Shown here in pieces: positions 11,451 to 32,378 of a stretch of DNA of 64,000 bases (positions are counted from its first letter, which is position 1; the number at the start of each line of letters is the position of its first letter). The DNA is from Acidobacteriota bacterium (GTDB taxonomy: Bacteria > Acidobacteriota > UBA6911 > RPQK01 > JAJDTT01): positions 4,608,001 to 4,672,000 of the forward strand of contig OZ253580.1 of assembly GCA_965263035.1 (NCBI GenBank). The letters are read 5' to 3'. The translations under genes were made by a program, and so were the position numbers. The notes beneath the pieces were generated by a model. The model saw nothing but the letters and a program-made list of their open reading frames with translations, did not search any database and was not told where the DNA came from.

Positions 11451-13004
11451 ATGGGCAATGAGCAAGGTTTCTCTATCGTCGCACTCGACAACTTCATACG
11501 CGCGACACGCGACTCGGGCTACAAGGGTACGGCGAGCGCCGTGGCCGAACTAATAGACAACTCGCTGCAAGCGAGAGCTACCGAGATTTCGGTCAACGTG
11601 AAGGTAGACGTAGAACAGCGCGAATACCCGCTCGTGCTAACCGTACTCGATAACGGTACGGGGATGGGCGCGACGACACTCCGCACAGCATTACGTTTCG
11701 GCGGAAGCACACGGTTCGATGATCGCCTTGGCTTAGGCCGCTACGGAATGGGGTTGCCCAATAGTTCACTTAGCCAAGCCAAACGGGTCAACGTTCATTC
11801 CTGGGGATCGAGCCGTGGAGATGTATTACATTCGTATCTGGACGTCGACGAGATCGCCTCTGGCGCAATGACCGAGGTTCCAGAACCTCAAAGGGTACTG
11901 CGGCCGTCCTTTTTGAACGGACACGTCACCGGAACTGCTGTCACCTGGACTCGTTGTGACCGCTTGGACAACAGGCGGGTATCGACACTCACGAGGAAGC
12001 TTTTGTTCTCGCTTGGTCGCCAGTTTCGCTTTTTCCTGTGGGATGGCGTCTCGATCCAAGTTAATGGCGATGCAGTCGAACCGATCGACCCGCTGTTTCT
12101 GCATCCTCATTCGTGCTTCAGCGGAGCGGCTCAGTTCGGCAAGGATCTAGTGTACAGGATCGCGGCGGATCGCAATGACAGGCGCCGGACTGGCACCGTC
12201 CGGATCCGCTTTTCGGAACTTCCTGTCGGCGAGTGGTCAAAGCTGAGCAATAAGGAAAAGCGTGTCAGGCGTATTACAAAGGGTGCAGGTGTCTCGGTGG
12301 TTCGTGGCGGCCGAGAGGTGGACTATGGCTGGTTCTTTCTTCGTAGGAAGCGCCGGGAGAACTACGACGACTGGTGGCGTTGCGAGATACAGTTCGACCC
12401 GGTACTTGACGAGGCGTTCGGAATCACCCATACAAAGCAACAGATCCGACCCAGGCCACATCTGCGAGAGGCTTTGACTTCTGATATCGAGTCGGTGGCA
12501 CGAGTCCTAAACACGCGCGCTCGCAAGGCTCATCAGACCGTGAAAGTCGCCGAACGCTTCAGCGCGTCAGAGGAACGAGCCGCCCGAAAAGATGCCATGC
12601 TGACGCCTCTGCCTCGACATCGCCGTCCTCGGGACGAGCAGGTGCTCGCTGCCTTGGGGCTCACGATAGATCCACCACTGACAGAAGCCGGCTCGAACAA
12701 ACCGTCCACCGAATACAGAATTCTGTCTTCAGCACTCAGCGAGACGTCGTTCTTCAACTACGCGCGCGATGACGGACGGCTCGTGCTCATCGTCAATCCC
12801 GAACACCCTTTTTTCAAGGTTGTATACGGCAAGCTTCTCGATTCCGATTCTCCTCACGACATCGCGCTTCGATCACAGATTGATTTGCTGCTCCTCGCGG
12901 CAGCGCGTAATGAGGCCCTGCTGGACGACCAGCGGTCAATCGACGTAGCGGAATCTATGCGTAAAGGGTGGAGTGACACCTTGGCGACGTACCTGAGCGG
13001 GTGA
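11451..13004 (+). CDS. Prokaryotic MORC-like GHKL ATPase
   Basis: Bergerat-fold motifs ELIDNS, DNGTGM, GRYGMG and GTAV; later FGITHTKQ and VNPEHPFF. Confidence 0.85.
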   Translation: MGNEQGFSIVALDNFIRATRDSGYKGTASAVAELIDNSLQARATEISVNVKVDVEQREYPLVLTVLDNGTGMGATTLRTALRFGGSTRFDDRLGLGRYGMGLPNSSLSQAKRVNVHSWGSSRGDVLHSYLDVDEIASGAMTEVPEPQRVLRPSFLNGHVTGTAVTWTRCDRLDNRRVSTLTRKLLFSLGRQFRFFLWDGVSIQVNGDAVEPIDPLFLHPHSCFSGAAQFGKDLVYRIAADRNDRRRTGTVRIRFSELPVGEWSKLSNKEKRVRRITKGAGVSVVRGGREVDYGWFFLRRKRRENYDDWWRCEIQFDPVLDEAFGITHTKQQIRPRPHLREALTSDIESVARVLNTRARKAHQTVKVAERFSASEERAARKDAMLTPLPRHRRPRDEQVLAALGLTIDPPLTEAGSNKPSTEYRILSSALSETSFFNYARDDGRLVLIVNPEHPFFKVVYGKLLDSDSPHDIALRSQIDLLLLAAARNEALLDDQRSIDVAESMRKGWSDTLATYLSG

Positions 13005-13007
13005 GTT

Positions 13008-15041
13008 GTGGATCTCTCGACACATAACGATTGGTTACCTCTGTCTCCATTGCTTGGCAAGTCTAATTCTGCCCATGCCATCTTCCGGGAATATGCTAGG
13101 CGACTATCAGATGCCATTGAGGATGACACCGGCATTAAGTCCCAGCGTTCGCTGGGCGAATCCGTTGCCATGGCACCTAGCGGGCAGATTCACCAGGCCC
13201 TTCGTGCGGCGCTCGGTGTGTTGATGGACCTTGCCCGGCAACGCTGGTCAATCCGCGTCACTGGCGAAGGCTTTGTCGAGGTCAAGCGTCCCGAGGGGGA
13301 GAGGATCGATTCCCTCCGGGAAAAGGCCAGAATTCGGCAGCAAGAACTTGTCAAACGTGACGAACAGCTCCGGGAACCGGCGACTCGGAGGTTCGTCCGC
13401 AGGATGGAGAGTAGTGTTATCTACGAAAACCAGCCGGTCTCGGTGTTTTCGTTGTTTCGAGATGGTCCCGAACTCGCCCACTCGTTGAGAAGTGCCCGCA
13501 CGCTGCCACCACACCGACGAGATGAAGGTCTTCGTGCGGCGCTGGATCCATACCTCCAGTTCGTCGACGACTCCGCTGCATGTGAACATACGGGCCTCCG
13601 CCTTCAGGACATCTGGCGGTATTTCCGTCATACTTGGTCCAACCAGTACACAAGCACCCCGGGACGCCGGATGGCATTTCTGGTCCGCGATCGTGCTCGC
13701 ACGTTTCACCCCGTCATGGGAATCGGTGCCATCGGCAGCCCGATCGTACAGATCCGGGAGCGCGACGTATGGATCGGTTGGGATGCTGGGACCTTTCTAG
13801 AATCTGTCGCGGAGGCGCCTTCTACCGAACTTGTGCCATGGCTTAGAAGAATCGTGGATCGTGCGATCAACGAACTCTTCATTGAAGACTTTCTGGAAGA
13901 GCAACTCCTCGACCGACGGGATCTCAAGGAGCCGTCGTTGGAGATAATCGCCCGCTTGAAGACCCATGGCACGAGGCAGCGGGCGCTGCATCACCGGTTC
14001 GTAAGCTCGCAGGAACATAAGTCTTGGCCGGAGGGTAACGAGAGAGCATGGAGGCAGCGAGCCCTGACACATCTTTACCGTAGCAAGCGCGCACTGTCCC
14101 TCTCCCAGCTACTACGTGCTCGCCGGACGTTGCGCGAATTCTTCGGAAAGCGACCTATTAGCACGTCCGTCCGTGCGTTCATTAGAAACCGCGAAGGACG
14201 TCGGACTGTGAGATCCATCCTGCGGAAGGCCAAAGCAGACCGCGTCGGCATCGCCATTGCCGACATTACCGTGTGCGGCGCTATAGAACCGTACAGCCAG
14301 ATTCTCGTCGGCAAGCTCGTTTCGATGCTGGCCGCGAGTCCAGAGGTGATACTCGCCTACCGTAACAAGTACTTGGAGCAAGAAAGCGAGATCGCATCGT
14401 CGATGGCCGGACGTCCTGTTATCCGGCCTTCGCATCTAGTTTTTTTGGGAACGACCTCGCTCTACGGTGTGGGCTCGAGCCAGTACAACAGGCTTAAGAT
14501 GCCAGCCGAACTCTTGGGTGGGCTTCCGGGCGAGCACCTCGAGTACCAGCACCTCGGCAAGTCGAAATCCTACGGCACGTCGCACTTCAGCACCCACACA
14601 GTCGATGCACTCGTCACGTTGGTTGAGCAGACCAGTAATGGCCAGCGCGTGAACAGCATCTTCGGCGAAGGGGTGAGCCCAAAGCTGCGAAAGGTTCGCG
14701 ACGGATTGGGCGTACTCGGACTTCGAGCCAGCGAACTACTTCAGCACGGCAGACAGAGGATCGTCTACGGAGTACGTCTCGTGCGGAACGTTCGGGAGTT
14801 TCTCCTGGGCTTAAATGAGGAACCCAACTACTTGTTTGACTTGACGGACCCCAAAAAAGGGACTGCTGTCATCATGGACTGGTGGACGAGACGGTGGCTA
14901 TCGAAACGTGTCATGAACGACGAAATTCTGGCACGCCTTGATGAGCATTCCCTCGTCCGACCCATTCGCCACGGCGCTCGCGTTCCCCTTCCACGAACCA
15001 GCCCCGAGCAGGGATCGTTCTTCGAGGATATTGAAGGCTAA
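13008..15041 (+). CDS. druA: DUF4338 protein, DruA-like
   Basis: WS...PGRRMAFLVRD, RDVWIGW, GAIEPY..LVGKLVSML..SPEV, TTSLYG..SSQYNRL and GTSHF match the DUF4338/DruA pattern as I recall it. Confidence 0.7.
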   Translation: MDLSTHNDWLPLSPLLGKSNSAHAIFREYARRLSDAIEDDTGIKSQRSLGESVAMAPSGQIHQALRAALGVLMDLARQRWSIRVTGEGFVEVKRPEGERIDSLREKARIRQQELVKRDEQLREPATRRFVRRMESSVIYENQPVSVFSLFRDGPELAHSLRSARTLPPHRRDEGLRAALDPYLQFVDDSAACEHTGLRLQDIWRYFRHTWSNQYTSTPGRRMAFLVRDRARTFHPVMGIGAIGSPIVQIRERDVWIGWDAGTFLESVAEAPSTELVPWLRRIVDRAINELFIEDFLEEQLLDRRDLKEPSLEIIARLKTHGTRQRALHHRFVSSQEHKSWPEGNERAWRQRALTHLYRSKRALSLSQLLRARRTLREFFGKRPISTSVRAFIRNREGRRTVRSILRKAKADRVGIAIADITVCGAIEPYSQILVGKLVSMLAASPEVILAYRNKYLEQESEIASSMAGRPVIRPSHLVFLGTTSLYGVGSSQYNRLKMPAELLGGLPGEHLEYQHLGKSKSYGTSHFSTHTVDALVTLVEQTSNGQRVNSIFGEGVSPKLRKVRDGLGVLGLRASELLQHGRQRIVYGVRLVRNVREFLLGLNEEPNYLFDLTDPKKGTAVIMDWWTRRWLSKRVMNDEILARLDEHSLVRPIRHGARVPLPRTSPEQGSFFEDIEG

Positions 15042-15188
15042 AGGGTTGCTGGTTGTGAACCGAGTCCGTCCATTATGAAAACGTCCTGTAACGGATTTCG
15101 TGGTCACAATAACAGTGAGCCAGACGTCAACCCAGCCGACTAATTGGCAGATTACCGCAACTCCTGCATCTCTCTTTAGCCAGGATCG

Positions 15189-18100
15189 ATGACCATGTCT
15201 TACTCGGTCAGCATACGGGAGGCCGAAAGGAGCCTTGCGAGCCACTTTGCCAAGCTGCGCGACAGTCGCACCGGCCCGATCTTCTTTATCGAGCACGGTC
15301 TTTCCGAGCCAGACTCGCGAAAACTCCGTGACTTTGTCAGCCAGGCGGCGAGGTACCGGCTAATTCAGAGCGGATGGTGGCGTGAGTATCCTCTTCCCCT
15401 TCTCGTGACTGCAACCGAAGTGGGGTACAGATACCGCGGAACAGGTACGGATTTCTGGCCGAAGCTCGAATCGAAACTCAAGATAGACATCGGTGCAGCG
15501 GCACGCCAACAGGTGCGGGAACTCTTCGTAAGCTGCTCGGAATGGTATAGGGGTGCGAAACCGGCGGATACGCCGTGGACAACCAACTTCTGTCTCATCG
15601 CCTGGCCAATTACGCACGCTCTTGTTCCTGTGGAGTTTCATCGTCAGCTTGCGGCGGCTCTCGCGAACCTGCGTTTAAGCGCCTATTCACTTGACAATGA
15701 AGACCTCCACGCTGCGGTTCGGATCGCCGCAGGACAGCCGTCGGCACGCTTTCATACGTTCCTGGAGGACGCCAGCCTAGCCGTCCCAGTCATTCGCGCT
15801 TTGTTAGGCGAAGGGAATGGCGAGATCTCTCCGGGCTCAATCGATCGGATCGCAAAGGATCTGGAGTCGGACTCGGATGCACATCAGAACATCAAGATCG
15901 CGAAACAAGTCCAGCGCCGTCTTCAATCCCGCAAATCACGAGCGAACAAAACTATCGAACTGGTCGAGCCGGAGGCTGTCAAGGGAGTCCTTCAATTGCG
16001 AGTCCGTGAAGGAGACCGGATTGGGGTTGAGGCCCTGTTCCCGCGACGCGAGGGGCCTGAAACCGATCGGCTCCGACGAACACTTCGCAGACGCCGTTTC
16101 GCGCCTAAGCTCTGGGGGCTGACCTCCCAGGTGCCTAGCGAGAGGCTGTTTTCCGGCGTGCCCTTTCCAATAAACTTGCGGTCGTTACCGGACATTGGTG
16201 CACCCTTATTCCCCGGACTGCGCGAACTCGGGATTGAGAACGACCTTGTAATCACTCTAAATTCGTTTCAACTCAACTTCGAGTTGCCCCTACTATTCGC
16301 TGCAAATGGCGAGAGAAACCTAGCCCGCATGGTGCGTGGTTTCGATATTTCGGCGTATCGTGAATACTGGTTATTGGGAAAGCAGGGCACGCTTGAGTCA
16401 TTCACTGGAATTGTGCAGTTCAAGATAAACGAACCGTTCGTCTGCTACAGAGTGAAACCGCTCCAATCGGGTGTCCAAGAGGTGCTTAGGGGATTAGGAT
16501 ACACAGTCCGCCACGGCGTCTCGGTCTCGATCGCGGGTGCCCCTACAATTGACGAGCACGACGGTTTATCCCGCTTCAACGTAGGAGACGAGCGGATTGT
16601 GGTGCCCAGGCGGCGGCACTCGGCCGAGACGTTTGTCGAGTTTGGCGGCAAAACGGTCGAGTTGAACGATGACTTGGTCCGGGTACGCACAGGAGAAGGG
16701 AGACAACACTCTTTCGATCTACAGCCGGGGAACGTTATGGCAGGACCAGTTCGAAGGTGTACCGGCCGCCGCCACAACCGCCAAACATCCGGTTTGTTGG
16801 TTTGAGCTATCTGCAGATGAAATGACAGTGCAGGCACTTCTTGCAGGCAACATTTCTTTCGGTGTCCACGGACCAGCGCCGCTTGAGGGCCTAACAATAA
16901 CGCTGGAACTGGAGGCCGGCGGTCGGCGATCGGGTGTCTCCACCTCACTCGATCCGCTTCCCCATATGTTCCTCGCAGAGGACGAAATTTGGCTCAGCCT
17001 CCTCAACCCAGCAACTCGCGCACGCCTGCTGGAGGATCCGAGTCCGGTTCTGCACGCCCGTGTGGATTCTCTCGCTGCGGAATCGTGGACCCTTGAACAA
17101 CGCATTCGGCCATGTTGGTGGCGGGGCAGTCCATCCTCCCTCGTCCTTGAGAGCGAGCTTGGACCGCTGGACTATGGAGCAATCCCTATTTCAACCCCGG
17201 CTTCGCAACCGGTTCCAGCGGAACACGGTGCGGGATCCGACGCGGTTCTGCTTGCACCGTTAAGACCCGATAAATCGGTCCTCGGACCGGCCGCAAGCTT
17301 CGTTACATTTTGCGTTGCGCCCGAAAGAACCACTCTATCGTTGCCGCGAATAGAGAGCCCGAGGCTATGCCGATCCCGTCGGGGCAGGTCCGGATCTATG
17401 GGGGTAGAAGACCTCGTTGAAGCGTGGTTTCGGTGGTCTCTCGCGGAGGCCGATTCTCTAACTGCTCAAATCCGGAAGGCACAAGCAAGTTCCACACTAG
17501 ACCGTTGGCTCGCGGAACTCTCCTGCGGCGAAGTATGGGCGCGGCGTGAAACTTACATTAATGCTGGATTTCGCGATCCTTGGAAGCTGTTCGCCGACGA
17601 GTGCCGAAAGAGCCGACTTGGACTTGACGATTTCGTCGAACTTGGCGAACGTGACGAAGTCCAGGTCGTTCGATACGCTGAGGCCGAGATTCGGCGCACC
17701 CAACCGCAACTCTGGGTACGAGTTGGCCCGCTCCCACATCTAGATAATGACACGCGCAGATCCTTGCTAGACGACGACGAATACGCAGTCCTTGATGCAG
17801 CGTTTGAAGGAGGCTACCAGAAACTCGCCTCGAGATACCGAAGGGCAGGCAACGTCCGGTTGGCAAGGAAAATCGAACAAGCTGACCCAGGGGCTGGGCC
17901 GGATCAATGGGATCCGGTTCTCGATGCTGTTCGGTCGAAATGGGAACTCCACGAGCTGGCTGAGTTGCTGTACCCGACTGACACCGCACAGTGGCTGACG
18001 ACTCTTGACCTGACGCTGATGGCGCTCAACGATATCGCTGATGAATTACATCGCTGGGCTACCGCATCTCGTAACGCTCTCGCTGCCGATGTCCCGTCCC

Positions 18101-18270
18101 ACCAGGCTCTCATGGCAGTCCTCGCCATCTGGATCGCTCCAAGCACAGCGGTTAGTTTGGACTGGCGTGGTGCGCTCGACACTTTGGTTGCCGATAGATC
18201 GCTTTCCCGCGCAGTTCGATACCTTGCTTTAAGGGCCCGCAGCGCTCGCATTGAATTTGAATCGAAATGA
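15189..18270 (+). CDS. Large unknown protein (~1020 aa if joined); two ORFs overlapping by 137 nt, probable frameshift near 16692-16702
   Basis: ORFs 15189-16805 and 16669-18270. Removing one base in GGAGAAGGGAGAC gives RVRTGEGDNTLSI. The stop is coupled to the SNF2 ATG. Confidence 0.6.
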
Positions 18271-21200
18271 GAAACGCTTACACTGAACTCTGTCTGTCAG
18301 TGCAGGCATTGAGGCGGCAATTCGAAGGATTGCGTACGCCGCTCGCACCCGCGACCGGCGTTGCTGCATTTGTATACACCCACCAAGTAGCGAATGTCTT
18401 TCGCGTGCTGACCGACGTTCGGGTGCGGCACCTCCTGGCCGATGAAGTCGGTCTGGGCAAGACTGTCCAGGCCCTAATGATCCTCAATGCTCTCCGATAC
18501 CAAAGGAAGGATCTTCAGGCTCTCATTATCGTTCCGGATGCGCTCGTGCCCCAATGGCGCGACGAAATCACGATTCGGGCCCACTCCGTTCCAATCGGCG
18601 ATGAAACAGGTGGTGAGGGCCAGCAATACATCCGGTTGGCCTGGGAAGCCCAGTTGAAGAGGTCGGCTACTGGGCGGACTCGCGGCTGGACGCTTGCCGA
18701 CATCGATCCCGACAAATACGATATCCTTGTGGTCGACGAATTCCACCGCCTTCGCACGGACCTTCAGGAGCGCATCGCCCGGGTGGCGGATGGATTCGAA
18801 CATCTGCTGCTACTAACCGCGACTCCTTCATTTCAGGATGTCAAGCGGCATGCCCAACTGTTCACCCTTTTAGAGCCGGAACGCAGTTTTTTGGCCAAAA
18901 GGCGCGATGGGACAGACGGTGGCGTGGTCGAAGGCATTCTCAATCGGGACAGGCGCGAAGCATTGTCATGCACTCCTAAGGACCTAACTGCAGCCGCGCT
19001 GGCTCACTGTGCCTATCGACGCATCATCCGCACCAGACGAGCCGATTACGAGGGGGTACTACCCAAAAGAAAGCATACCCCTCGCAGAACGCGACCGTTA
19101 GGTGCTGAAGAAGAACGTCAGTCGCTGATGTGGAAGTACTTCAGGCGCCTCGACGACGTGCGCCTTGCAGTCGACCCAGTGAGATTGGCCAAACGTGTCG
19201 TCCTAAGTCCACCATCTCTTGAGCAGCGAGTCGACTTCCTACGTCGCAGGGGCCACGAACGAGAGGGCCTACTTGAGCGTGCGAAGCCTCTCGTTCACCG
19301 CACACAGGGCGACTCGCGGGCAGACGCGCTTGTAGATCTACTTGCCGAAATCTGGACCAAAGATGCATCCGAGCATGTCCTCGTGGCCGCGCAGGACAAC
19401 TTGACCGTCGACTATCTGTTTGACATCGTCCGGGCCCGGTTGCCACTCATAGGCCGGATTGGAAGCCGAGTGCCGCTAGTCGCGGCCCGAGTCAGGCAAG
19501 GAATGATGACCGAGGCCGTCGAGGATCTTGCCGGTTTCAAGAACGAAACAAATGAGAACCTCGAAGCGTTCCAGAGAGGGGATGCCCAAGTGCTGTTTGC
19601 TCCAGAAGCAGCACAGGTGGGACTGAACCTCCAGTGCGCACGGATACTGGTGCTCTACAGCGTACCCTGGCGGCCAGAAGAGGTGGACCAGTGGATCGGC
19701 CGGCTGGACAGGATTGGCAATGCCGTTGCCTTTGCGCCGGAAGAAGAGACCAAAACCATCGACATCTACACCATTGCACAAAAGGGGTTGGTCGATGATA
19801 AAGTCGTGACCGTTCTGCAACGGTTCCATGCGTTTGAGCGTAGCGTGAACCTGGATGGGACTCACCTGAAGAAAGTGTCTCAGACGATCGAAACTGCCGC
19901 GCTGAGACCTGAACAAGCGAACTGGAACGCAATTGAGAACGCGACCGAAACGATGGCTTACGAGGACGAGATTAAAGAATTGGATTCGGATCTCTGTCCG
20001 CACCTTCCCTGGAATGTTAAGTGGGCGACGGAAGTACGGAGAAGCCTAGCGAACCTTGAACCAGCTCCGCTGGCACTTGAGTCGTTCCGACGATTTACTG
20101 CCGGGCCGGGTTCGTGGGACCGTGCTTTTGAAGGTATGTTGAAACTCCTCGCTCGATCAAAGGAGTACGCCATATGGCTGAATGAAGACCCGTACGGGGG
20201 GAAGTTCCGATCACTTTGGTACCGGTTCGGACCTCATGGAATATACGGAGTCAGGGAAGTACTCTCCAAGGTTTTGTTCTCTTTCGGACAAGATCCTGGC
20301 AGCGGCCGAAGCCCCAGGCACGCTCACGCATACATCACCCGGCGTGGGGACATCTCATCGCCTCCTAGACGTCACGTGACATTGACCTTCGACGAGCAAG
20401 AGTTTCGTCGCCCTCTCCACTTCGTGAGCTTCGGGAACGCCCTTCACGACGAAATTGTCACCGGCTGGCAGCCGAACTCGGCCGAGACATACTCGGCAGA
20501 CATCTACCTTTCGGGAGACCATCCTTTCTTTGGATACGGAGAGACCGGGATCTACATAGTTCGGCTGTCGGTTCTCGACCCGGCGTCATGTCTACAAGCT
20601 GCGACTGTCGTCGAACGGGCGTTAGGAGCCATTTTCGAGGCATCTGTCCGAGTTTCGTCAAACCATTCGACTACTTTAATGCGTCTCTTCCAACGCGCAG
20701 TGCGATGCGGAATTGAGGCGGATATCCGATGGGTACGGGGAACTCTGACCGCGGAACTGTGCATCCAAGGGCTAAAGGCGACGCAGGGTAGTTGGAAAGT
20801 CGCTACTATTGATGAAGTAACCGCGCTTTTTAATCCGCTCATCCATTCGAGCACTGGAGTGCCGTTGGTTGCCGAATGGACGCCGTCGGAACGGTTAAGA
20901 GATCGTATCAGCGGAATGCTGGAACAGCTACGCCACTTGGACCAAAATACGGCCCAGAATACCTGGGGTTCTCGATTGGCGAATTTAAAATCAGCTCTGG
21001 ACATAAGACGCGAGGTGATCCGCAACGAAGCCCAAGACGCCGTCGAGTTGGCTGAATTCAAATTGGCCAAAACCCGAATCGACCTAGGCACGGCTCTCGC
21101 GCGGGGCATTCAAGGACAGATAACTCGCGCGCGAAACTTGCGTGATATAGCGGCGGACACTGTAGACATGACGAGAGTTCTTTGGGAACAGCGAATTGCT

Positions 21201-21287: not shown

Positions 21288-21292
21288 GCTAG

Positions 21293-22315: not shown

Positions 22316-22497
22316 ATCTCCGCCTCCGAGACCAGTGAAGCTTTTTCAAGCACTGCCAGACACTCGTCCCCGTGGGCAATGGCGATCAGCAGAAACCTTG
22401 CGCGGGTGCATGCAACGTATAGGTCCTTCTTTTGGAACAGCTTTCCAAAATCACCCAAATCGTAGAGCAGAATGACATCTGCCTCAAGCCCTTTAAA

Positions 22498-24493
22498 CCC
22501 AGATTATTCACCACGCAAACATAAAATGAGCAAGCGTGCCCGTCATGTCGAGTCGGATCAGAGGGTTACCGGATACCCACAGAAAACGGCTGAGACCCGA
22601 CCTGGGTGAAACGCTATATTTGTTTTCAACGTCGGTTTAACCCCAGGATTCAAGTGGGGCCGAAACCCAAGCATTTCCACGGTTTTCGTCCCCTCCAAGG
22701 GCGGCATAAAGAGACGGCGTGCCCGTCATTTGTGGTATGATTATAGTGCTAAGAAACAACCACAATAAACGGAGCACGCCATGCCTGAGACGATACCGCA
22801 GATCCGGCCCTCATTCAACCGATCCCTCCGCCTCGAGACCCGCCCCGAGTTGCTCAGTGCGGACACGGGAGCCCTGGTGCAACGGGAGCTGATGGAGCGC
22901 AGCGGCCTCATCGACTGGTTGACCGAGCGGTTGCACGATCCGCGACACCCGAGTTCGATCCGCTATCCGCTGTCGGATCTGCTGCGGACTCGACTCCTGC
23001 TGCTGGGTCAGGGCTGGCGCGACCAGTCCGACGCCGACCGCCTGCGTCAGGATCCGAGCTTGCGGGTGGCGAGCCAGACCCGTCGGGGCACGGCGGCCTT
23101 GGAGGAGGGCCAGGGGCTGGCATCGCAGCCGACCTTGTCCCGACTGCTGGACACGCTCAGCCGGGAGGAGAACCTTTCGGTCCTGCACCAGGCGGTGACG
23201 GAGCTGGCGTGCCGTCGGATCGAGATGATCGAAGGCCGGCGGCGAAAACGGGGGAAAAAGACCCCACGGAAGAAGAGACGGAAAAAGACGATGTACCTGG
23301 ACGTGGACGGTCTCCCGGTCGAGGTCCATGGGCATCCCCCGGGAAGCGAATGGAACGGATACTATCGCCAGCGGATGTACCACGGGTTGGTGGCGAGTTG
23401 TGCCGAGACGGGGGACCTGATCGACGGGGAGATTTTTCCGGGAGCCAGCTACCTGGGGAAAAAGGCGCTGAAGTTGACGCTGCGGGTGGTGGACCGCTGT
23501 CGGGGGCGTCTGTGCGGCTCGATGATCGTGCGGATGGATGCGGGGTTCCCGGAGCCGGGGCTGCTGAAGGGGCTGGAGTCGAGAAGCGTGCCCTATATCG
23601 CTCGAATCCGCAAGAATGAGGTCCTGAACCGGATGGCGAAGCCCTACTTGACCCAGCCGGCGGGGCGATCCCCGGATGCACCACCGAAGCTCTGGTTCCA
23701 TGAGCTGACCTACCAGGCGGGGACGTGGGATCGGGCGCGCCGGGTGGTGCTGGTGGTGCGGGAGCGACCGGGGGAGTTGTATCCGGATCATTTCTGGTTG
23801 CTGACGAGCCTGAGCCGGAAGCGTTATGAGGCGGAAGCGCTGCTGACACAGTATCGAAAGCGGGGGAAGGCGGAAGGGCACATGGGGGAGTTGATGGACG
23901 TGCTCGATCCGGCCTTGTCCTCCGCGAGCCGGCCCAAGACGCACTACCGGGGGAAGCCGCTGAAGCCGGGAGCGAAGCCGGAAGCGACGACGGAGGCCGG
24001 CGTTCGACCCCACAACGAAGTCTTGTTCCTGCTGAATCTGCTGGGGTACGAGATCCTGCACCTGGGTCGGGTGCTGATGGAGCAGGCGACGCGTCGGGGC
24101 TGGAGTCTGCGTCGTTTTCGCGAGCGGATGTTGCGAGTGGCGTCTCGGGCGCTGCGCCAGGGGAGGCGATTGATTTTCGTCATCAGTCAAGGGGCGACGG
24201 ACTGGAAGCGGTTGTGGAAGAGACTGGCGCGGGTGTCCTGGGCGCCGGGATAGCGGACGGAGGAGGAATCGGGCCCGTGGAAGGGACCGAAACGGTGGGG
24301 ATTTCTCACCGGAGAGTCAATCTGTCGGCGGGTGACGGTCCCCCTGGCCGGAAAACGGTTTATGACTGGTTCAATCGTCCTGTTTTCGAGCCGATTCAGT
24401 CGAATCGACAGAGCTTCAAGAGAAACCGGGCTGCGACCGCACGAAAACGCCGGGTTGGAAGCCCTTATCAACATGTCCCATGAATAATCTGGG
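22498..24493 (+). mobile_element. Complete IS1380-family element (1996 bp)
   Basis: Perfect 13-bp TIR CCCAGATTATTCA; 5-bp TSD TTAAA at 22493-22497 and 24494-24498. Confidence 0.92.
22781..24253 (+). CDS. IS1380-family DDE transposase
   Basis: LASQPTLSRL, YLDVD, VRMDAGF and YRKRGKAEGHMGEL. Confidence 0.92.
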   Translation: MPETIPQIRPSFNRSLRLETRPELLSADTGALVQRELMERSGLIDWLTERLHDPRHPSSIRYPLSDLLRTRLLLLGQGWRDQSDADRLRQDPSLRVASQTRRGTAALEEGQGLASQPTLSRLLDTLSREENLSVLHQAVTELACRRIEMIEGRRRKRGKKTPRKKRRKKTMYLDVDGLPVEVHGHPPGSEWNGYYRQRMYHGLVASCAETGDLIDGEIFPGASYLGKKALKLTLRVVDRCRGRLCGSMIVRMDAGFPEPGLLKGLESRSVPYIARIRKNEVLNRMAKPYLTQPAGRSPDAPPKLWFHELTYQAGTWDRARRVVLVVRERPGELYPDHFWLLTSLSRKRYEAEALLTQYRKRGKAEGHMGELMDVLDPALSSASRPKTHYRGKPLKPGAKPEATTEAGVRPHNEVLFLLNLLGYEILHLGRVLMEQATRRGWSLRRFRERMLRVASRALRQGRRLIFVISQGATDWKRLWKRLARVSWAPG

Positions 24494-26057
24494 TTAAAGG
24501 ATCTCGATGTAGTAACTAGGACTCCCCTGCCGTCGTACCAATCTTCCGAGTTCGTAATCAGAGGCACTGCTTTCACTTTATCTACGCTTGCAAGACTACC
24601 TTTTGCTTTCGATCTTGGCCCTATCAATGCGATTTGTCGTGGTTTGATGCCACCGTCAGTGAAAAGCCGCCTTAGTTCCCGCAGCACAAGATCATATTGT
24701 TCCCGAGAAGATCTGGCTCGGAGTATTCGCATGGTCGTGCCAGCCGGTGCGCGAGCAAAACTTCGGGATTCCAACTTCATTAACGAAGCGCTCGCTGCTG
24801 CGATTTTTCGGGTATTCCTGCAATTGATCTTTAGCGAAAATGTCGTATCGAATTCGATCGGGGGACGTTCGACCTCGCCTCGGAGAGACTGATTCGGGTC
24901 CATAAATGCGTAGACCGGGCTATCTTCCCCTCGGAGTAGAGATTGCGTCAGAGCGTACCACCAGCCTAATGAAAAGTCCTGAGCCTCATCAACGACCATA
25001 GCGCCGTACCTAACATCGATTCCTCTTATGTCATGATCTAGAATCGCCTGTTCCAGTAAGTCTGGAACTTCTTCGTCCCAAAACTTAGGCGTCAACGATC
25101 CTCCCTGTGCAGGGCGAAATCTCACTCCAACTTTGGCAGCCATTTCCTTCGCTAGCGAATGAAAGTTCTGCACCGTAAGAAAAGATCGATACTCTCGCGT
25201 CCGAGGGTCTCCTTCCACCTGTCGGCGAAGCCACGCAGCAAGGGCACTGTTGTAGCAGATGAACAGCGTGCGAATGCCAGCACGTGCGAATGCGAGCGCC
25301 CGTTCCAGGGCAAGAAAAGTTTTTCCGGACCCCGCGACCCCTTCCACCAGCACCCTATCCTGAATGTAAAGGCCCTCGAATACCTGCGCCTGTTGCTGTG
25401 TCAGTTCCAACAGTATCTCGGACGCGGACGCAATGTCTGGACCGATTCTGCGGATGATCTTGAACTTGGGCATTAGGCAGTCGTAAAGCAAAATCCGATA
25501 TTCGTCGCCTCGCAACTCCCGCAATCCAGTGCGCCAAGCCCTGAATGCCCTCATGAGCGCCTGATCGATGAACGGCAAGTGGCGTCGAGAAAGCACGATC
25601 GCTGATTCAGCATGTGGTGGTGGCGTGCCGCCATAGTCAGCGTGCGGGAACATGACTGCATAGCCGTAGACGAAATCCCCCCTGTTTATCCTGTTTCCCG
25701 AACGCTGCTGGACAATGTCTAGAAGCGCGTGCATATTCCGTTGAGCCTGACGGAATGGGTCTTGGAACTCTCTTGGACCATGAGCGCTGTGCCGGAACCA
25801 CCGGCCTCCTTCATATCGGATGTCCTGTCCGCCCTTGACCTCAAGCACCAAAAGGCCGTGGCGAGGGTGAAGGACCACGAAATCAGCCTCGCCCTCAGCA
25901 ATAGCTGCGTTTTTCCTCCAGCGACGGAGCCAGGGATACGAGTGAAGCACGACGAAATCATCGGAAAGCTGGTCGCGAAGGGCTTTGTAAACGGGGACCT
26001 CAGAACTGTGTTCGAGTTGAGCGGTATCGAAGTTGGGAATCATCCGTGCCATAAGAC

Positions 26058-29000
26058 TCAGCGGATTCGCTCTAAGGCCCCATCGATAAACACACCGAAC
26101 GCTTTCCCTACAACTCGTATCTCTGATTGACGCGCCATCTCGGAGCGTGGTGCCTCATACGAGTAATAGAGAATGTGGACCTTGTCCTCACGCTTTCTTG
26201 GCAATCCGAAGGTCCAGCGCTCGCCGGTAGCATTGAAAGCACCGATACGGCTCGTCAGTAGGCGCGGTAATCGGTCGTTTCCGACATTCACGATTGTACT
26301 TTCTTCAGTAGGCACAAATACGACCCACGCTCCTCGCGGGAAAAGGGCCTTCGGCATGCGCTCGAGTGTCGGTCGTGTTAGCTGCACGAGGAAAGCGTCT
26401 GAAGGCACACCGTCTACCCTCACAGTTGCCAATGGCGATGGCCGCGCGTCGTATTCAAACATTGACGAAGTGTAAACTGGACACCCTTCTGGATCTTCCT
26501 GTAGGAATTCAGGCACGGAAGGTCCTTCCGGAGTCGTGTTGTCGACACCGGTAACGGCCCTGACAGCGGCAGGCAACGCGTTATCCACGAGCAGTGAGTC
26601 CACGACGTATACATCGTGATCTGTAGCTAGGACTCGTCCCGCGACGGTCCCAGGCTGGCTCGGAATAAGGGGGTGACCTAGAATTACGTAACGATCATAG
26701 TCGACTAGCCGGATACCACCGCCGATTTCTTCTACCAACTGTCCAGATTCCACAAGATCAAGGGCAAGTGAGTGGAGCATTCGTCGCTCGTCGACTTCAG
26801 GAATAGTCGGGATTTCTCCGTGGACAACGTGGCGGAGCAATGCGGCGCCAAGAGTGCGATGGAGGTGCTTATGGTCCCACCTGTTTTTATAACTTCTTAG
26901 GCACTCGTAGCAGGAGTGCGTGCAGTTGCATGATTCCAATCTGTTGAGGGCGGAGTCGAAAAGCGCGACGGGGTCTCCAACGGCGGCTCGTACGAATCCG
27001 GCGCCGCCAGGAGTCAAATCGTACAGGTATACCTCGGCCTCTTTACCGGTCCGGCCACCTTCAGTCATGGCCACCCGATACTCTGCACCAATATCGGATT
27101 CTTCAATGTCCTGAAGTCGTGCCGCCGCCGTCGACAGCGCCTCAGCGACGGTGGTGAGCACGATCTCTGCGACCGTGGATCCTGGGGTTAACTTGGCCTT
27201 ACCCGCCAGCCGGAACCGGATGAGACCTATGTCGGTTTCGAATTCGTTGCCGAAAACGACTTTGGTCGAATACCCATTACAACTGGACCCATGGGGGAAA
27301 TGGTCCGGAAATGGTTTAAGGTGTCCACCTCTCTGTCTCAGCTCCCCCGCTGACCAGCCGTTCGGTTCGGTCCTTCCGCAGAGTGGGCAATGTAGAAAGC
27401 CGGGTTTCCACGGGTCGCGAGACCCGGTGTTTGTAAGCACGAGTCTCTGCTTTTCCGTCCAGATATCGTATCCGGCACCGTTCGCTGCGGTCTCCGATGC
27501 ACTCGTAGACCCGGTATCCGTGAACGGGGCGCTCAGTTTTGCCCGGGTTGACCGGGTAGGCGTTGGACTATCCGCAAGTGGCAGTTCTGCCTCAATATCC
27601 ACGGGATGTGCAAAGCCGGGAGGTCTAATCCATTGCATGCCCACGCCGAGCGACCCCTCGGTACCGCAGGCAGGACAATTCAGGACCTGGTCCACAAAAA
27701 AGTCATCTCCACGCGGTTCGACCTTTGCATATCCACAGCGGCTACACTCAAAGTAGACCTTACTCCGGTTCCATGCTCGCCAGCATTCTCGACTTCTGAA
27801 CGGGGTCCACACGGCGAATGAATAATGGCGCTCGCCATTGACCCAAACCTCACGTCCAGGAGCGTAGCTCGAAAGTGCTTGATTCAGACCTAGTTGTGGT
27901 GTGTATCGAAGCTTCGCTCGCCGCTCCGTACTCTGTGCCTTGTCAAATATATGAAATGTGACAACATCAGTAGGAAACGCGTATCTAGGCAACACACCGC
28001 GGTCAAATAGTCGGTCAAGAAGCTTCTCGGGATCCATGCCTTGTTCGGGAGATTCCTCAAGCCCGCTCTCGGACTCAACGTAACTTTCGGGACCAAGATC
28101 GATTCGCTCCCCCCAATCCAGGCTGACGACTCCGCCTCTCCCTCCGCGACTCGTTACTTCGTTCAGAATATCGTCGTTGGAGGGAGGTGTCTGCGCGGCG
28201 ATTTCATGGGCCCGTAATGGTCCAGCACCGACGCTTCTAAGGGCAGCGAGTAGCGAGTCCGAGACCTCGTCTATGAAATCCGGTGTCTTGTCCAGCACGT
28301 TGGTCGGGACAATGTCGGTAAGAGTTTCTCGTAAACTGGACCGGGTATCTAACAGCCAAGACTTAAGGCCCGCATAGGAAAACTCGTCACGATGTCCTTG
28401 CTGAAAGTCTCGAAGTGTTCCGAGGCTATCGAACACGTTGGCACTAACCTCCCTTCCCTCACCAAGGTCTGGAATGGCGCTCTGTTGGAAGAGGCTCATC
28501 AGTAAGGCAAAACAATGACGCCGTACAATCTCGATATTGTCGAGGTTCAACGTGGGAACCGGAACCGGCCCGCTCACCATCCCAGCCGGGTCCGCATAGA
28601 ACTGCTGGTCATGGCTGTCAGCACCACAGTACGTGATTACTGTCGAGAGTGCTGAACCACGCCGACCAGCGCGGCCGGCCCGTTGCTGATAGTTCGCACG
28701 GCCGGGAGGAACGTTTCGAAGTGCGACAGCGGTCAAACTGCCAATGTCAATGCCAACTTCCATGGTTGTTGTGCAGGAGAGCACATCTATCGGCCCCTCG
28801 CGTCTGCTCTCCGGTCCTTCGACATCGAGGTCTTGAAATCGGAGTTCGTGCCATTCAGCCCGTGCCACATCCGTCCGGTCACCGCTAGCGTTGAGCGCTG
28901 CCGAGTGCTCCGCTGCGACAAAGGGGTGCGGCGCATAGCCAGGCTCGCTCTCGAGTCGCTCGAAATGCCGACGATAATGGCCCTTGCGAGAGACAAAAAC

Positions 29001-32000
29001 GGGATCCGCTGTCGGATCAAGAGATTGCGTCTTTCCCGAGCAATATCGATTGCCGACCCGAACTGTGCAGAGGTGTCCGGCAATCGGGTTACTCGGCTGT
29101 GCGGTAGTGCATCTGTTGCAACGCCTCCACGAGATGCCATCGTGGACGACCCGCAGTTTGGCTGCACGCAGAACAAACCCGTTCGCGGTATGCGAAACAC
29201 CAAGAGTGCGGGAGACGAACTTCACCCAAGGAGGCTCGTGGCCCCCTCTTCGGCGAAGATTTCTGCTAAACCAAGGAGACCCGACCAAATCCCTCAAGAT
29301 TTTGGGAAACGTGCCCTTCACTCGACGGATCTTTGCTCCGGATTTCGAATCCAACCATTCGCTGGGCGTCGTGGGCAATAATAGGGCATGCCTCGCGACG
29401 GCATCCGCCACCCATAGGTTCAGCAGGGCCTGACGTAGCTCTTGGGTACTTAGGTGACTGGGGCTAGGGGGAACGGGTAACTGCGAGAGGACACGCTCGT
29501 CCGCAGCACTGAGACTCGCCCGAATTGCTGCAAGCCCCAACGCACTCAGTCCGGTGTGGCGGTCGTTGAGCACCGGATAAACGGCGAGCATCAGGGACTT
29601 GTTCGTTCGGAGATGGTTGAATTCACCGGATGCCTCAAGAAAATCTTGCTTTTCGGCCGGCGGGTTGGCGATCAGCAATTCCCGAATGGCAGTAAGGTCT
29701 TCATCAAAGTGGGGTGCTTGGATTGGACGCAAGTTGACACCGTGAAGTACACATCCAGCAAGAAGAGCAGCATACGAATGGTCGAGGGCCACGGGGGTTG
29801 AATAGAGGCGCTCTAACTCGGTAATGCCCGCAAGAAGCAACGGACGTACAGCGTCCTGCATGGAGTACTGCTGGAGTCGACCTGCCAGGCGTGAAGCTGC
29901 CTGACGACCGTCCGAGAAGATGAGAGACTTCCTGCCCCTTAGTGGCGTGTGAACGTTTGCCCGAGGTGGCTGCTCGAGTAGTTGGGCAGAAATGATTTCC
30001 TGGAAAGGCTGGTCACCCTTAGTAACGTGATTTGATATGCTCATGGTGCCGTTGGCTCCGCAAACCGGGCACTTCGCAAACATTCCAGGATCAGTGGTAT
30101 TCCCACCCAGTGGGGAGAGCCAGACCTCACGGGCCGCGCTATTTCCAGAACCGAGTCGTCCGGACACCGGATCAAGGAATTGAAACCGGGCACCAGATCC
30201 GTCGGGAGGGTCCTCAAGCAACAGGTGCACGGGTTTGATGACACCCGTGTATTCGTCATCGATCGAATCCATTTCCTCGGTCCAGAGATATTTGGGATTG
30301 TCGGCGTCGAATGCGTAAGCGTTCAAGTATGCTGTTCCGCAGTCCCGGCAGGTGTGGATTTCAAACACTCGTGCACCACACTCGCAGTTGCGCCTTGGCT
30401 GGGGATAAAGAACTCCTGTCGGGGGTAGTTCGTCTCCCCATTTATCGCGCAGGTGGGTCGGGACCTCACTACACGTCGGGTCGGCGCACGCCCACAATCC
30501 GGGTAGTCCTCGAAGAAACATGTGCACACGTGCCGCCAACAGAGGCCGCCCCTTACCGCGACGCGCCATCGAAGCCAGTTCAATCAGCCTGTCTGTCGCC
30601 TCACGGGACAGACCTGGGTCTACAGCAGGGAAGAGGCGCGGTCCGAGTGCATAGACAGCCTGTGCCGGGCCGGCACCGGACGGGTCTGTTTCGTTATCTC
30701 CGGCGGCTTGCGCCCCACTTGTGAGGTTGCGTAAGCGGCCCGTGACCGGCAATTGACTCAGGCAACTATGGAGAATTCTCGCGACCGGATCCTGGCTGCT
30801 TTCCAACTGCACACCGGATGACTCGTTTATGCGAAGTTCCGGTACTCCGCCGACGTTGACCCGCACGGATTCCGTGCTTGTGCCGCCGACGATTGCGATC
30901 ACGTCGCGCGGCAGTTCCTCTGGTGCTGGGGAGAGACGAAAGCCAAGGTTGATTATTTCACACTCGGAAGTGAGGCATCGCAAATCTGCATTGGTACCAA
31001 CTGGCCCCACGACCGTAAGTGAAGCATATTCTCTCGGTGCTGCAAGATTGAGGACCGGCATTACAGCTTGTATGCGTGCTTCTAGGTCGTCTTTACGTAG
31101 CGCCTGGAGGTCTACGGACACGAGTGCGATTGCCATCGCTTGGTCGCCCGGTCCCGAAGGGCGCGCGGCACGCTTGTTGCCGGTTAACGGCACAAATCCC
31201 GACACTGGCTTGCCGGTTAAGTCGGCCGCGAAGTCGCAAGCGGCATCCGGATTAGAGAAGGAAGCACTCGTGCAGACAACCTGTATCTGCCCCATAGACA
31301 GACCAAGGCGATTTCGGAGACGCCGAATCAGCATCCCCACCTCCGTTCCCTGGGCTCCTCGATAAAGGTGTGCTTCATCCAGAACAAGCATCAGTCGCTG
31401 GCTCGGATTGGCAGCATAGTACTCCGCAGTCGTGCTAAAGATCTCGCGCTCGACAGGACGCAGCAACATGTATTCGAGCATTGAGTAATTTGTCACTAGG
31501 AGATCGGGCACACCCTCGTGGACTTCTTGTCGAAGAAACAGTTCCGGATCCTCTGGTCGCTCGATGGTACGTACCCACCGGCCCTCTTTTTTCCACCTAC
31601 CCCTCCCGTACCAAGAGGAAATACCATCCTCAATTCCCGATCTACTGGCAGGTTTAGAGGGCCACTTGCCTCGCTTCTGAAGTTCGGCAATCAATGCTCC
31701 GGCCTCAAGATCTGTCGTGGCTTGGTGTTCGAGGTCCAAATAGAACTTCAGACTCTGTAATCGTTCCCGATGCTTATCCGTACTCTCTTTTCGGCGCCCC
31801 GGATATAGAGTTCGCCCGGTATATCGGGCGAACTTCATGGGACGCCCGGCGTGCTCTTCGAACCACGTAGCCAACGTGCGTTGCCCAAAAAGAAGACGCA
31901 AGCGCCCGAGCTGGTCATTGACCAAGGCATTCATGGGATAGAGCAACAAGGATCTCAAGGCGCGCGTTCCGAAGCTATTGCAAACCCTCGCCTCCTCCGC

Positions 32001-32378
32001 AAGACGTCCCAAAATAGGAAGCAGGAATGCTTCTGTCTTTCCTGAGCCTGTGCCAGTCGTCACGACGAGATCGCTGAACGGAGGATTGAGCGCCAGTTCC
32101 AGAGCTTCGGCTTGGTGATCGTACGGCGGATCGAAGATCACCCCGTTTTCGCCCAAGTTAACCAACAGGTCCGTTACACCTAGTGGAAGCGAGAGATCGC
32201 GGAAGCTGCGTGAGCCCTCATAGCGAGCCGTACTTTCGACGTACGGTTGTTGGGCGAGTGTGCCGTCCCGCGCGAGGAGTTCTGCCCTCATATCCACCAA
32301 AGCAGGATTGGACAAGTGATATGTGGACGTGATGTATGTCCGGAGTGAGTCGCGTAAACGTTTCAGTTCTTGGTACAT
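26058..32378 (-). CDS. Giant DEAH-box helicase with Zn ribbons and DUF1998 (DruE-like), 2106 aa
   Basis: YDHQ, TGTGSGKT, YPMNALVNDQ, TNYSMLEYML, DEAH, TTTMEVGIDIG, QRAGRAGRR and DUF1998 YD..PGGAGF...CNCTHSCYECL. Confidence 0.88.
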   Translation of the reverse strand: MYQELKRLRDSLRTYITSTYHLSNPALVDMRAELLARDGTLAQQPYVESTARYEGSRSFRDLSLPLGVTDLLVNLGENGVIFDPPYDHQAEALELALNPPFSDLVVTTGTGSGKTEAFLLPILGRLAEEARVCNSFGTRALRSLLLYPMNALVNDQLGRLRLLFGQRTLATWFEEHAGRPMKFARYTGRTLYPGRRKESTDKHRERLQSLKFYLDLEHQATTDLEAGALIAELQKRGKWPSKPASRSGIEDGISSWYGRGRWKKEGRWVRTIERPEDPELFLRQEVHEGVPDLLVTNYSMLEYMLLRPVEREIFSTTAEYYAANPSQRLMLVLDEAHLYRGAQGTEVGMLIRRLRNRLGLSMGQIQVVCTSASFSNPDAACDFAADLTGKPVSGFVPLTGNKRAARPSGPGDQAMAIALVSVDLQALRKDDLEARIQAVMPVLNLAAPREYASLTVVGPVGTNADLRCLTSECEIINLGFRLSPAPEELPRDVIAIVGGTSTESVRVNVGGVPELRINESSGVQLESSQDPVARILHSCLSQLPVTGRLRNLTSGAQAAGDNETDPSGAGPAQAVYALGPRLFPAVDPGLSREATDRLIELASMARRGKGRPLLAARVHMFLRGLPGLWACADPTCSEVPTHLRDKWGDELPPTGVLYPQPRRNCECGARVFEIHTCRDCGTAYLNAYAFDADNPKYLWTEEMDSIDDEYTGVIKPVHLLLEDPPDGSGARFQFLDPVSGRLGSGNSAAREVWLSPLGGNTTDPGMFAKCPVCGANGTMSISNHVTKGDQPFQEIISAQLLEQPPRANVHTPLRGRKSLIFSDGRQAASRLAGRLQQYSMQDAVRPLLLAGITELERLYSTPVALDHSYAALLAGCVLHGVNLRPIQAPHFDEDLTAIRELLIANPPAEKQDFLEASGEFNHLRTNKSLMLAVYPVLNDRHTGLSALGLAAIRASLSAADERVLSQLPVPPSPSHLSTQELRQALLNLWVADAVARHALLLPTTPSEWLDSKSGAKIRRVKGTFPKILRDLVGSPWFSRNLRRRGGHEPPWVKFVSRTLGVSHTANGFVLRAAKLRVVHDGISWRRCNRCTTAQPSNPIAGHLCTVRVGNRYCSGKTQSLDPTADPVFVSRKGHYRRHFERLESEPGYAPHPFVAAEHSAALNASGDRTDVARAEWHELRFQDLDVEGPESRREGPIDVLSCTTTMEVGIDIGSLTAVALRNVPPGRANYQQRAGRAGRRGSALSTVITYCGADSHDQQFYADPAGMVSGPVPVPTLNLDNIEIVRRHCFALLMSLFQQSAIPDLGEGREVSANVFDSLGTLRDFQQGHRDEFSYAGLKSWLLDTRSSLRETLTDIVPTNVLDKTPDFIDEVSDSLLAALRSVGAGPLRAHEIAAQTPPSNDDILNEVTSRGGRGGVVSLDWGERIDLGPESYVESESGLEESPEQGMDPEKLLDRLFDRGVLPRYAFPTDVVTFHIFDKAQSTERRAKLRYTPQLGLNQALSSYAPGREVWVNGERHYSFAVWTPFRSRECWRAWNRSKVYFECSRCGYAKVEPRGDDFFVDQVLNCPACGTEGSLGVGMQWIRPPGFAHPVDIEAELPLADSPTPTRSTRAKLSAPFTDTGSTSASETAANGAGYDIWTEKQRLVLTNTGSRDPWKPGFLHCPLCGRTEPNGWSAGELRQRGGHLKPFPDHFPHGSSCNGYSTKVVFGNEFETDIGLIRFRLAGKAKLTPGSTVAEIVLTTVAEALSTAAARLQDIEESDIGAEYRVAMTEGGRTGKEAEVYLYDLTPGGAGFVRAAVGDPVALFDSALNRLESCNCTHSCYECLRSYKNRWDHKHLHRTLGAALLRHVVHGEIPTIPEVDERRMLHSLALDLVESGQLVEEIGGGIRLVDYDRYVILGHPLIPSQPGTVAGRVLATDHDVYVVDSLLVDNALPAAVRAVTGVDNTTPEGPSVPEFLQEDPEGCPVYTSSMFEYDARPSPLATVRVDGVPSDAFLVQLTRPTLERMPKALFPRGAWVVFVPTEESTIVNVGNDRLPRLLTSRIGAFNATGERWTFGLPRKREDKVHILYYSYEAPRSEMARQSEIRVVGKAFGVFIDGALERIR

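Follow-up and report, generated by a model that had tools for sequence, protein, structure and literature searches.

A seven-gene block of two convergent operons in an Acidobacteriota genome, probably an expanded relative of Druantia type I

We analyzed a block of seven genes at positions 11451-32378 of a 64,000-nt stretch of the genome of an Acidobacteriota bacterium (assembly GCA_965263035.1, contig OZ253580.1, positions 4,608,001 to 4,672,000). The whole stretch is called the window below, and all coordinates are window positions. Four plus-strand genes, encoding a GHKL ATPase, a DruA protein, a protein of ~1000 aa that we call U, and an SNF2-family helicase, face three minus-strand genes, encoding a 340-aa protein that we call P340, a NERD helicase, and a DruE helicase. 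An earlier sequence-only reading of this DNA had listed these genes; the open reading frames (ORFs) lie where it placed them, and its domain calls were upheld by Pfam and PADLOC. An insertion sequence (IS) lies within the NERD helicase gene, which appears in pieces in the following list.

11451-13004, plus strand: GHKL/MORC-like ATPase, 517 aa (Pfam HATPase_c_3, 1.8e-21)
13008-15041, plus strand: long DruA (DUF4338), 677 aa (PADLOC PDLC00001 DruA1, 3.2e-199, nearly full length)
15189-16805 and 16669-18270, plus strand: U, two ORF pieces of one gene (no family)
18267-21287, plus strand: SNF2-family helicase, 1006 aa (Pfam SNF2-rel_dom, 4.1e-14, and Helicase_C)
21293-22315, minus strand: P340, 340 aa (no Pfam match; family of 153 clusters, 336-340 aa)
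22312-22492, minus strand: C-terminal piece of the NERD-UvrD helicase with the conserved stretch LYVACTRA (translation matches the C-terminus of the intact-family alignment)
24494-26052, minus strand: N-terminal part of the NERD-UvrD helicase up to the IS
24187-26052, minus strand: NERD-UvrD (SF1) helicase, ORF as called (Pfam NERD, 3.3e-11)
26058-32378, minus strand: DruE, YprA-family DEAH helicase with MZB/DUF1998, 2106 aa (Pfam DEAD, Helicase_C, MZB)

The sequence-only reading had described two units meeting tail to tail 5 bp apart (21287/21293), with internal junctions either ATGA-coupled or 3-5 bp apart, and a check of the junctions agreed on both points. The convergent 3' ends of the SNF2 and P340 genes are separated by positions 21288-21292, the GHKL and DruA genes by 3 bp, and the DruE and NERD helicase genes by 5 bp. 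An ATGA overlap is common to U and SNF2, and another to the NERD helicase stop and the P340 start once the IS is disregarded. The block is also less GC-rich than the downstream genes, as had been noted (0.563 vs. 0.627 for 32379-64000), and the upstream region (1-9923) has a value of 0.596.

When 185,579 species genomes were searched by means of a P340 profile, 19 related loci emerged, representing at least five phyla and spanning Acidobacteriota, Alpha-, Beta-, and Gammaproteobacteria, Myxococcota, and Sumerlaeia. All 19 have two convergent operons, and eleven carry all seven families in the order and orientation of the window (DruE>NERD>P340> <SNF2<U<DruA<GHKL). Cultured bacteria with this order include Arsenicitalea aurantiaca 42-50, Aromatoleum anaerobium LuFRes1, Corallococcus exercitus SDU142, and Roseomonas oleicola ROY-5-3. 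Six others (L003, L010, L016, L018, L019, and L020) end at a contig or locus edge, and the part that is visible agrees. The co-occurrence of the two halves in other genomes, which the sequence-only reading had expected of a single system, was thus found. Locus L008 keeps the five-gene core but carries GHKL>DruA, at 53-62% identity, on the DruE strand and upstream of DruE. Plasmids of Leisingera sp. S132 and Paracoccus versutus (pTAV4) carry the seven families at 24-46% identity in the same order as L008, and a Roseivivax plasmid keeps GHKL-GHKL-DruA followed by IS30. Three groups (GHKL-DruA, U-SNF2, and DruE-NERD-P340) stay linked while their order varies.

The two halves also diverge together, with pairwise identities that co-vary across the convergent junction (SNF2-DruE, r 0.89; U-DruE, 0.89) as they do within operons (NERD-DruE, 0.95; SNF2-U, 0.96); for DruA the correlation is poor (r 0.05-0.23, with the outlier L013 in the set). 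Where the SNF2 and P340 genes converge, 11 of 17 loci show a 3'-end overlap of 8-51 nt and the other six a gap of 5-28 nt. At the junction of the NERD helicase and P340 genes, stop and start codons overlap in 16 of 19 loci. In the only other carrier of the genus (G553, locus L002), homology to the window runs precisely from the start codon of GHKL to that of DruE; the flanks of that locus, about 15 kb on either side, matched nothing else in the window, and upstream of DruE no gene was conserved across the loci. The spread is patchy: of 400 further genomes sampled from the phylum, and of eight others from the genus, one each has the system. Its neighbors include restriction-modification (R-M), toxin-antitoxin, and DarT genes. 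Since the block recurs in related loci as far as their contigs reach, we conclude that it is one conserved unit and not a chance cluster. Four loci (L006, L009, L010, and L019) have an extra ORF of ~351 aa, assigned to no family in Pfam or PADLOC, that separates DruA from U (e.g., 17071-18126 of L009).

Druantia type I consists of DruA-DruB-DruC-DruD-DruE. The sequence-only reading had been led to this system by the DruA protein and the giant DUF1998 helicase, and the PADLOC matches to DruA1 and DruE1 pointed the same way. The window DruA also matched Pfam DruA (PF14236) at 2.9e-32 (112 bits vs. a cut-off of 27) and is 25-27% identical to the canonical short DruA by alignment. DruE scored 1441 bits against the DruE1 model (PDLC00013), compared to 547 bits or less against the DruE2, DruE3, and DruE4 models; its solved relatives are 9tu7 and 9wae. 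For comparison, we used as canonical reference the Ralstonia plasmid pUW163a (L022), in which DruA through DruE all match PADLOC at E<=1e-150, together with a set of 37 metagenome loci found with a DruC profile. All 37 are co-directional (A-B-C-D-E) as far as the contigs reach. None had a match to the window SNF2, NERD helicase, U, or P340, and one had a GHKL match, largely in keeping with the earlier description of type I as co-directional and free of MORC, SNF2, and NERD genes. Canonical DruD gave a single weak match in 400 genomes of one class and was found on just 2 plasmids; no canonical DruC was found in viral contigs.

The block therefore resembles Druantia type I in having DruA (DUF4338), a DruE1-type YprA helicase for which the type I models are best, and, in P340, a protein of DruD size that is probably remotely homologous to DruD. 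It differs in four respects: DruB and DruC are missing (PADLOC matched neither to an ORF, even at E 10); DruA exceeds the canonical length by about 270 aa; four further components are present (GHKL ATPase, SNF2 helicase, NERD-UvrD helicase, U); and the genes form two convergent operons instead of one co-directional operon. As the sequence-only reading had supposed, no described system model was fully matched in PADLOC, which recognized just DruA1, DruE1, and generic helicase models and returned nothing for U or P340.

The DruD link comes from profile comparison. P340 aligned to a 32-sequence DruD profile over 194 columns from the N-terminus (hhalign 70.7%, E 3.8e-5); a smaller P340 alignment gave 64.8%, and controls gave 0.1-0.5%. 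The P340 homologue from Leisingera matches the PADLOC DruD1 model (PDLC00010) at 1.3e-5. In an AlphaFold2 (AF2) model of P340 (predicted local distance difference test score [pLDDT] 92.4), residues ~16-112 are predicted to form a winged helix (Z up to 11.5), with many DNA-binding winged helices among the matches; the P340 profile had zero matches among solved structures. P340 is thus probably a remote DruD homologue, a link that we regard as moderate.

U is a single ORF of about 940-1130 aa in all 16 related loci listed, and a search of 1.84 billion representatives placed 905 clusters in its family at E<=1e-3. Neither PADLOC nor Pfam has a model for U: none of 31 sampled family members had a PADLOC match, and nine of ten full-length members scanned had no Pfam match. 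The remaining member, P0341 (a 392-aa partial hit), had a weak RNA_pol_A_CTD match alone. The AF2 model of U (pLDDT 69.5) suggests a helical N-terminus, an immunoglobulin (Ig)-like beta-sandwich middle, and a helical C-terminus; Foldseek against the PDB gave nothing at E<=1e-3. The two-ORF arrangement in the window does not reflect two genes, which is ruled out by the single ORF in the 16 loci and by a related strain (X1, see below) without the extra base. A fused or divergent DruB plus DruC was likewise ruled out by hhalign (0.25% against DruB, 32 sequences; 0.08% against a 20-sequence DruC profile). The comparison with DruD gave 0.16%, and BLASTP gave noise alone. ARAGORN placed a tRNA-Gln (ttg) at 18156-18234, within the 3' portion of U; as U is a conserved ORF, we take this call to be probably spurious.

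A further type I-like variant gave U a place in Druantia. On plasmid pNWAT01 of Nitrosococcus watsonii (L065), four genes encode DruA, a 955-aa protein, DruD, and DruE, of which DruA, DruD, and DruE match the PADLOC type I models. U aligned to the 955-aa protein over 736 columns (hhalign 99.45%, E 4.5e-22), so that a U homologue sits in the DruB/DruC position there; unlike the window block, this variant has a short DruA, is co-directional, and lacks the GHKL, SNF2, and NERD helicase genes. Because of this homology, we conclude that in type I-like systems U can genuinely take the place of DruB/DruC.

The remaining proteins can be assigned with varying precision. The top solved-structure matches of the GHKL ATPase are MORC2, MORC3, and MORC4 (E 2e-5), in agreement with the MORC label of the sequence-only reading, and its ATP-binding stretches, which we take to be the N-box, G1, and G2, are largely conserved among 9 sequences. 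A second GHKL paralogue, 35% identical, lies just past the DruE start in Corallococcus exercitus (G003:C1:9183281-9184918; 170-1678 of L009), and tandem GHKL pairs also occur on the Leisingera and Roseivivax plasmids. The SNF2 helicase carries a C-terminal extension of ~500 aa without assigned function. Its best PADLOC matches are DpdE (2e-37), BrxHI/HII (4e-28), and DrmD (2e-22), all far below the NCBIfam cut-offs; its GLGKT motif is invariant and DEFH is largely conserved (D-E and H invariant). The NERD helicase, 576-582 aa in intact homologues, matches RTasNERD-Hel (3.4e-52) and NERD+UvrD (1.1e-32) in PADLOC, as well as GajB-like models, and its D...EVK, GSGKT, and DEAQ motifs are invariant among 15 sequences. 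DruE shows no variation in its DEAH box or in QRAG-AGRRG, and its GSGKT stretch is conserved for the most part. This motif conservation argues that all four NTPases and the NERD PD-(D/E)xK site would be active in intact copies. Long DruA also occurs in another architecture, on a Natrialbaceae plasmid (L071) and a Hymenobacter plasmid (L021), where its partners are hypothetical proteins and a large FtsK/SpoIIIE-like translocase; the archaeal locus L071 adds a divergently oriented 1807-aa DEAD/DEAH helicase. These two loci may represent yet another DruA-based system.

Several other defense systems share parts with the block. ARMADA type II is described in excerpts of Bell et al. 2025 (PMC12458937) as ArmA (SNF2/BrxHII-like), ArmB (PglX methyltransferase), ArmC (YprA-like), and ArmD (UvrD/GajB-like with RelE). 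The window has the same motor triad, with an SNF2, a YprA-family, and a UvrD-family protein that bears an N-terminal nuclease-type domain. In contrast to ARMADA type II, no PglX methyltransferase was found among the block ORFs (Pfam, PADLOC, NCBIfam), the N-terminal domain is NERD and not RelE, DruE belongs to the type I clade, and DruA, GHKL, U, and a DruD-like protein are added. The SNF2 helicase resembles DrmD of DISARM, but the block lacks a DrmA/DrmB split, DrmC (no phospholipase D domain found), and a methylase, and its similarity to DrmA and DrmD is weak (DrmD NCBIfam score 96 bits vs. a cut-off of 610). On an Azospirillum ramasamyi plasmid (L067), genes for DarT and for two helicases (NERD; GajB-like UvrD) flank DrmA/DrmB, which face a U-like protein and SNF2, making this an unusual DISARM variant with three partner families in common with the window.

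Dpd (7-deazaguanine) and MZA systems did not fit. DpdE scored 150.7 against a cut-off of 500 and DpdJ 93.7 against 800, and no tgt or queuosine-type families were found in the block by Pfam; MzaB, matched by the GHKL ATPase, was far below its cut-off (NCBIfam, 78.5 vs. 850 bits), and no other Mza model was matched in PADLOC. As in MORC/paraMORC systems, the block combines a GHKL ATPase most like MORCs, with conserved ATP-binding motifs, with an SFII helicase of the SNF2 family and a restriction-fold nuclease. It differs in that it has no methylase, and the partners described in the parts of Iyer et al. 2008 (PMC2292703) consulted do not include DUF4338, DUF1998 helicases, or NERD; neither NERD nor acetyltransferase is mentioned in that text.

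We class the system as an expanded subtype of Druantia type I, not previously described, because DruA, DruE, and probably DruD are shared; DruB, DruC, and the operon form are not. This accords with the sequence-only reading of one system or a new Druantia subtype, which gains support from the conserved unit and from the P340-DruD and U-L065 links. Our literature search, which did not extend to the supplementary tables of Bell 2025 and Doron 2018, found no description linking Druantia or DUF4338 with MORC, GHKL, SNF2, and NERD partners, and the PADLOC paper adds just Druantia type IV.

Taken together, we consider it probable that the seven genes form a single immune system that targets DNA, moves horizontally, and is an expanded relative of Druantia type I. 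Its defensive role and the mechanism that follows are inferred from the gene content and from related proteins. Excerpts of the literature report that type I DruE has an inactivated Vsr-like domain (Bell et al. 2025, PMC12458937), that type III DruE acts at forked or single-stranded DNA (ssDNA)-containing junctions (2026 type III preprints), that DUF4338 is a GNAT domain (PMC10853773), and that R-M-like systems combine MORC/paraMORC ATPases with SFII helicases and nucleases, a combination compared with MutL-UvrD and MutL-Vsr (Iyer et al. 2008, PMC2292703). By analogy, the SNF2 translocase, a U scaffold, the MORC-like protein as an ATP-driven clamp, and a GNAT-like DruA would survey or license DNA. 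DruE would then load at ssDNA/dsDNA junctions of foreign or replicating DNA, as is reported for type III DruE, and would unwind the DNA. Cleavage and degradation would be supplied by the NERD nuclease fused to the UvrD-like motor, which we propose as the cutter since type I DruE is reported to have only an inactivated Vsr-like nuclease. The winged-helix DruD-like protein may guide or regulate the NERD-UvrD/DruE effector part, and the outcome would be direct degradation of invading DNA.

Two separate systems lying side by side, for example a MORC-SNF2 restriction-like system next to a Druantia-like DruE-NERD system, would also account for the two convergent operons and the nearby type I R-M locus. 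The pairs can be re-sorted, with GHKL-DruA found on either operon; the Azospirillum plasmid has U-SNF2 and the NERD helicase with DrmA/DrmB in place of DruE; and MORC-SNF2 associations are known on their own, according to the portions of PMC2292703 consulted. However, such a division would put DruA in one system and DruE with the DruD-like protein in the other, whereas canonical type I holds all of these in one operon (37 of 37 loci). The seven families stay together under reshuffling, even down to 24-46% identity, the divergence of the halves is correlated, congeneric homology stops exactly at the outer start codons, and in 11 of 17 loci the operons share nucleotides at their 3' ends, all of which makes two systems unlikely. 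Slightly less likely still is an epigenetic system of the BREX/DISARM kind, in which a GNAT-like DruA or U would set or read a mark and the three motors would restrict unmarked DNA. The reported GNAT call for DruA (part of PMC10853773) and the resemblance of SNF2 to BrxHII, DrmD, and DpdE of modification-linked systems suit this idea, as do altered m6A (N6-methyladenine) motifs that a preprint, in the part consulted, associates with Druantia type I in the absence of a methylase domain (10.1101/2024.04.14.589459). Yet that claim concerns the canonical system and comes from a preprint, methyltransferase, deazaguanine, and phosphorothioation genes were not detected by Pfam, PADLOC, or NCBIfam, and neither DpdE nor DpdJ comes near its cut-off.

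We judged quite improbable that the block is a housekeeping or mobile-element maintenance module, serving DNA repair, replication restart, or competition among plasmids or integrative conjugative elements (ICEs) in place of phage defense. YprA/MrfA helicases do also work in repair (excerpts of PMC12458937), the MutL-UvrD-Vsr analogy itself stems from repair (excerpts of PMC2292703), and several carriers are plasmids. But a housekeeping module would be expected in far more than one of the 400 other phylum genomes, DruE groups with the defense-type DruE1, R-M, toxin-antitoxin, and DarT genes are among the neighbors, and the system was readily lost in this strain.

Several observations weigh against a single Druantia-related immune system, which we nonetheless prefer. 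The P340-led search would miss carriers of one half alone. Locus L013 has the core together with a divergent DruA on the opposite strand, and GHKL was not found there with the window query. The window P340 has no PADLOC DruD match even at E 10, and it reached just 0.7% when aligned by hhalign to the single Nitrosococcus DruD. Sequence comparison did not reproduce the GNAT call for DruA (best E 0.08 for the DruA profile against solved structures, and zero matches with the DruA sequence alone). For U, the wide VIA structure comparison returned just generic Ig, FN3, and PKD beta-sandwiches (Z<=7.5), none of them informative. Pfam, PADLOC, and NCBIfam revealed neither a methyltransferase nor any other self-marking enzyme that could account for discrimination between self and non-self. 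Finally, the copy in this strain is broken, as described below, and is therefore uninformative on activity; its loss could mean that the system is costly or dispensable.

If the immune system reading holds, it bears on Druantia type I, which is reported to be among the broadest-acting defense systems and for which we found no mechanism in the literature searched. The expanded relative would keep DruA, DruE, and a DruD-like protein while swapping DruB and DruC for recognizable machines, so the MORC-like clamp, SNF2 translocase, and NERD-UvrD protein may offer handles on the type I parts and on the nuclease that type I DruE reportedly lacks. It also brings to light two protein families missed by current defense-finder models, U (about 900 clusters) and the DruD-like winged-helix protein, and links Druantia to ARMADA and DISARM through a common motor triad. 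Much more tentatively, U-SNF2-NERD/UvrD might be an exchangeable cassette that plugs into YprA-family helicases (DruE; DrmA/DrmB), with the MORC-like clamp and GNAT-like DruA as a movable licensing pair and U as the common scaffold, in a system that bridges Druantia I, DISARM, and ARMADA. If this were true, the three would form one class of multi-motor DNA-surveillance machines.

We also examined the lesions in this copy of the block. The U frame is shifted by a 1-nt insertion at about 16696, producing two overlapping ORFs, and the NERD helicase gene is split by the IS. The IS and its remnants are as follows.

22493-24493, plus strand: IS of about 2 kb within the NERD helicase gene, with terminal inverted repeats and a duplication of about 5 bp
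22781-24253, plus strand: DDE_Tnp_1_4 transposase of the IS (Pfam, 1e-65)
9924-10429 (genome 4617924-4618429, 96% identity) and 10578-11188 (genome 4618578-4619188, 77%): debris of the same IS, directly upstream of GHKL

Given the insertion in U and the split NERD helicase, the system of this strain is predicted to be non-functional. The 6.2-Mb genome holds 14 full-length copies of the IS, including the window copy, at 95-100% identity, plus fragments; two other copies are 100% identical, suggesting recent IS activity. Both lesions were checked in public read-derived contigs of X1, a related strain from another study, and of X2, X3, and X4, which come from two studies and may include the source sample. 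The X2, X3, and X4 contigs are identical to the window, including the frameshift, and end at the IS, which makes an assembly error unlikely as the origin of the frameshift. X1, which differs from the window at 78 of 3,400 letters (about 2%) over the SNF2 gene, lacks one base at 16696, which restores the frame, and one of its contigs joins 22492 to 24494, an empty IS site. Both lesions are therefore real and strain-specific. The natural knock-out and the lesion-free copy in a close relative provide a ready pair for studying the cost and loss of the system. In a Bryobacterales carrier (L005), about 1.8 kb of unrelated sequence (about 528-2325) breaks the DruE match at residue 129, and the system there may be interrupted too.

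The IS debris at 9924-11188 occupies the place of a small regulator gene in other carriers. This gene encodes an HTH_17 protein of 81-101 aa (excisionase/MerR-like; PADLOC mad1, 1.4e-9) and lies directly upstream of GHKL in all four flanks fetched (L061-L064; genomes G001, G002, G003, and G005), which come from proteobacterial, myxobacterial, and Sumerlaeia carriers. It is absent from this genome and from G553, and tblastn of the window found none. A weaker HTH_17 paralogue lies directly upstream of DruE in L003 and L004 (about 1904-2050).

The neighboring type I R-M locus mentioned in the sequence-only reading was located upstream of the block, as follows.

682-2301: HsdS of the type I R-M locus
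2310-5316: HsdR of the type I R-M locus, split into two ORFs

The split HsdR is a further possible pseudogene of this strain, as is a TonB-dependent receptor gene at 32842-35169, which is likewise split into two ORFs.

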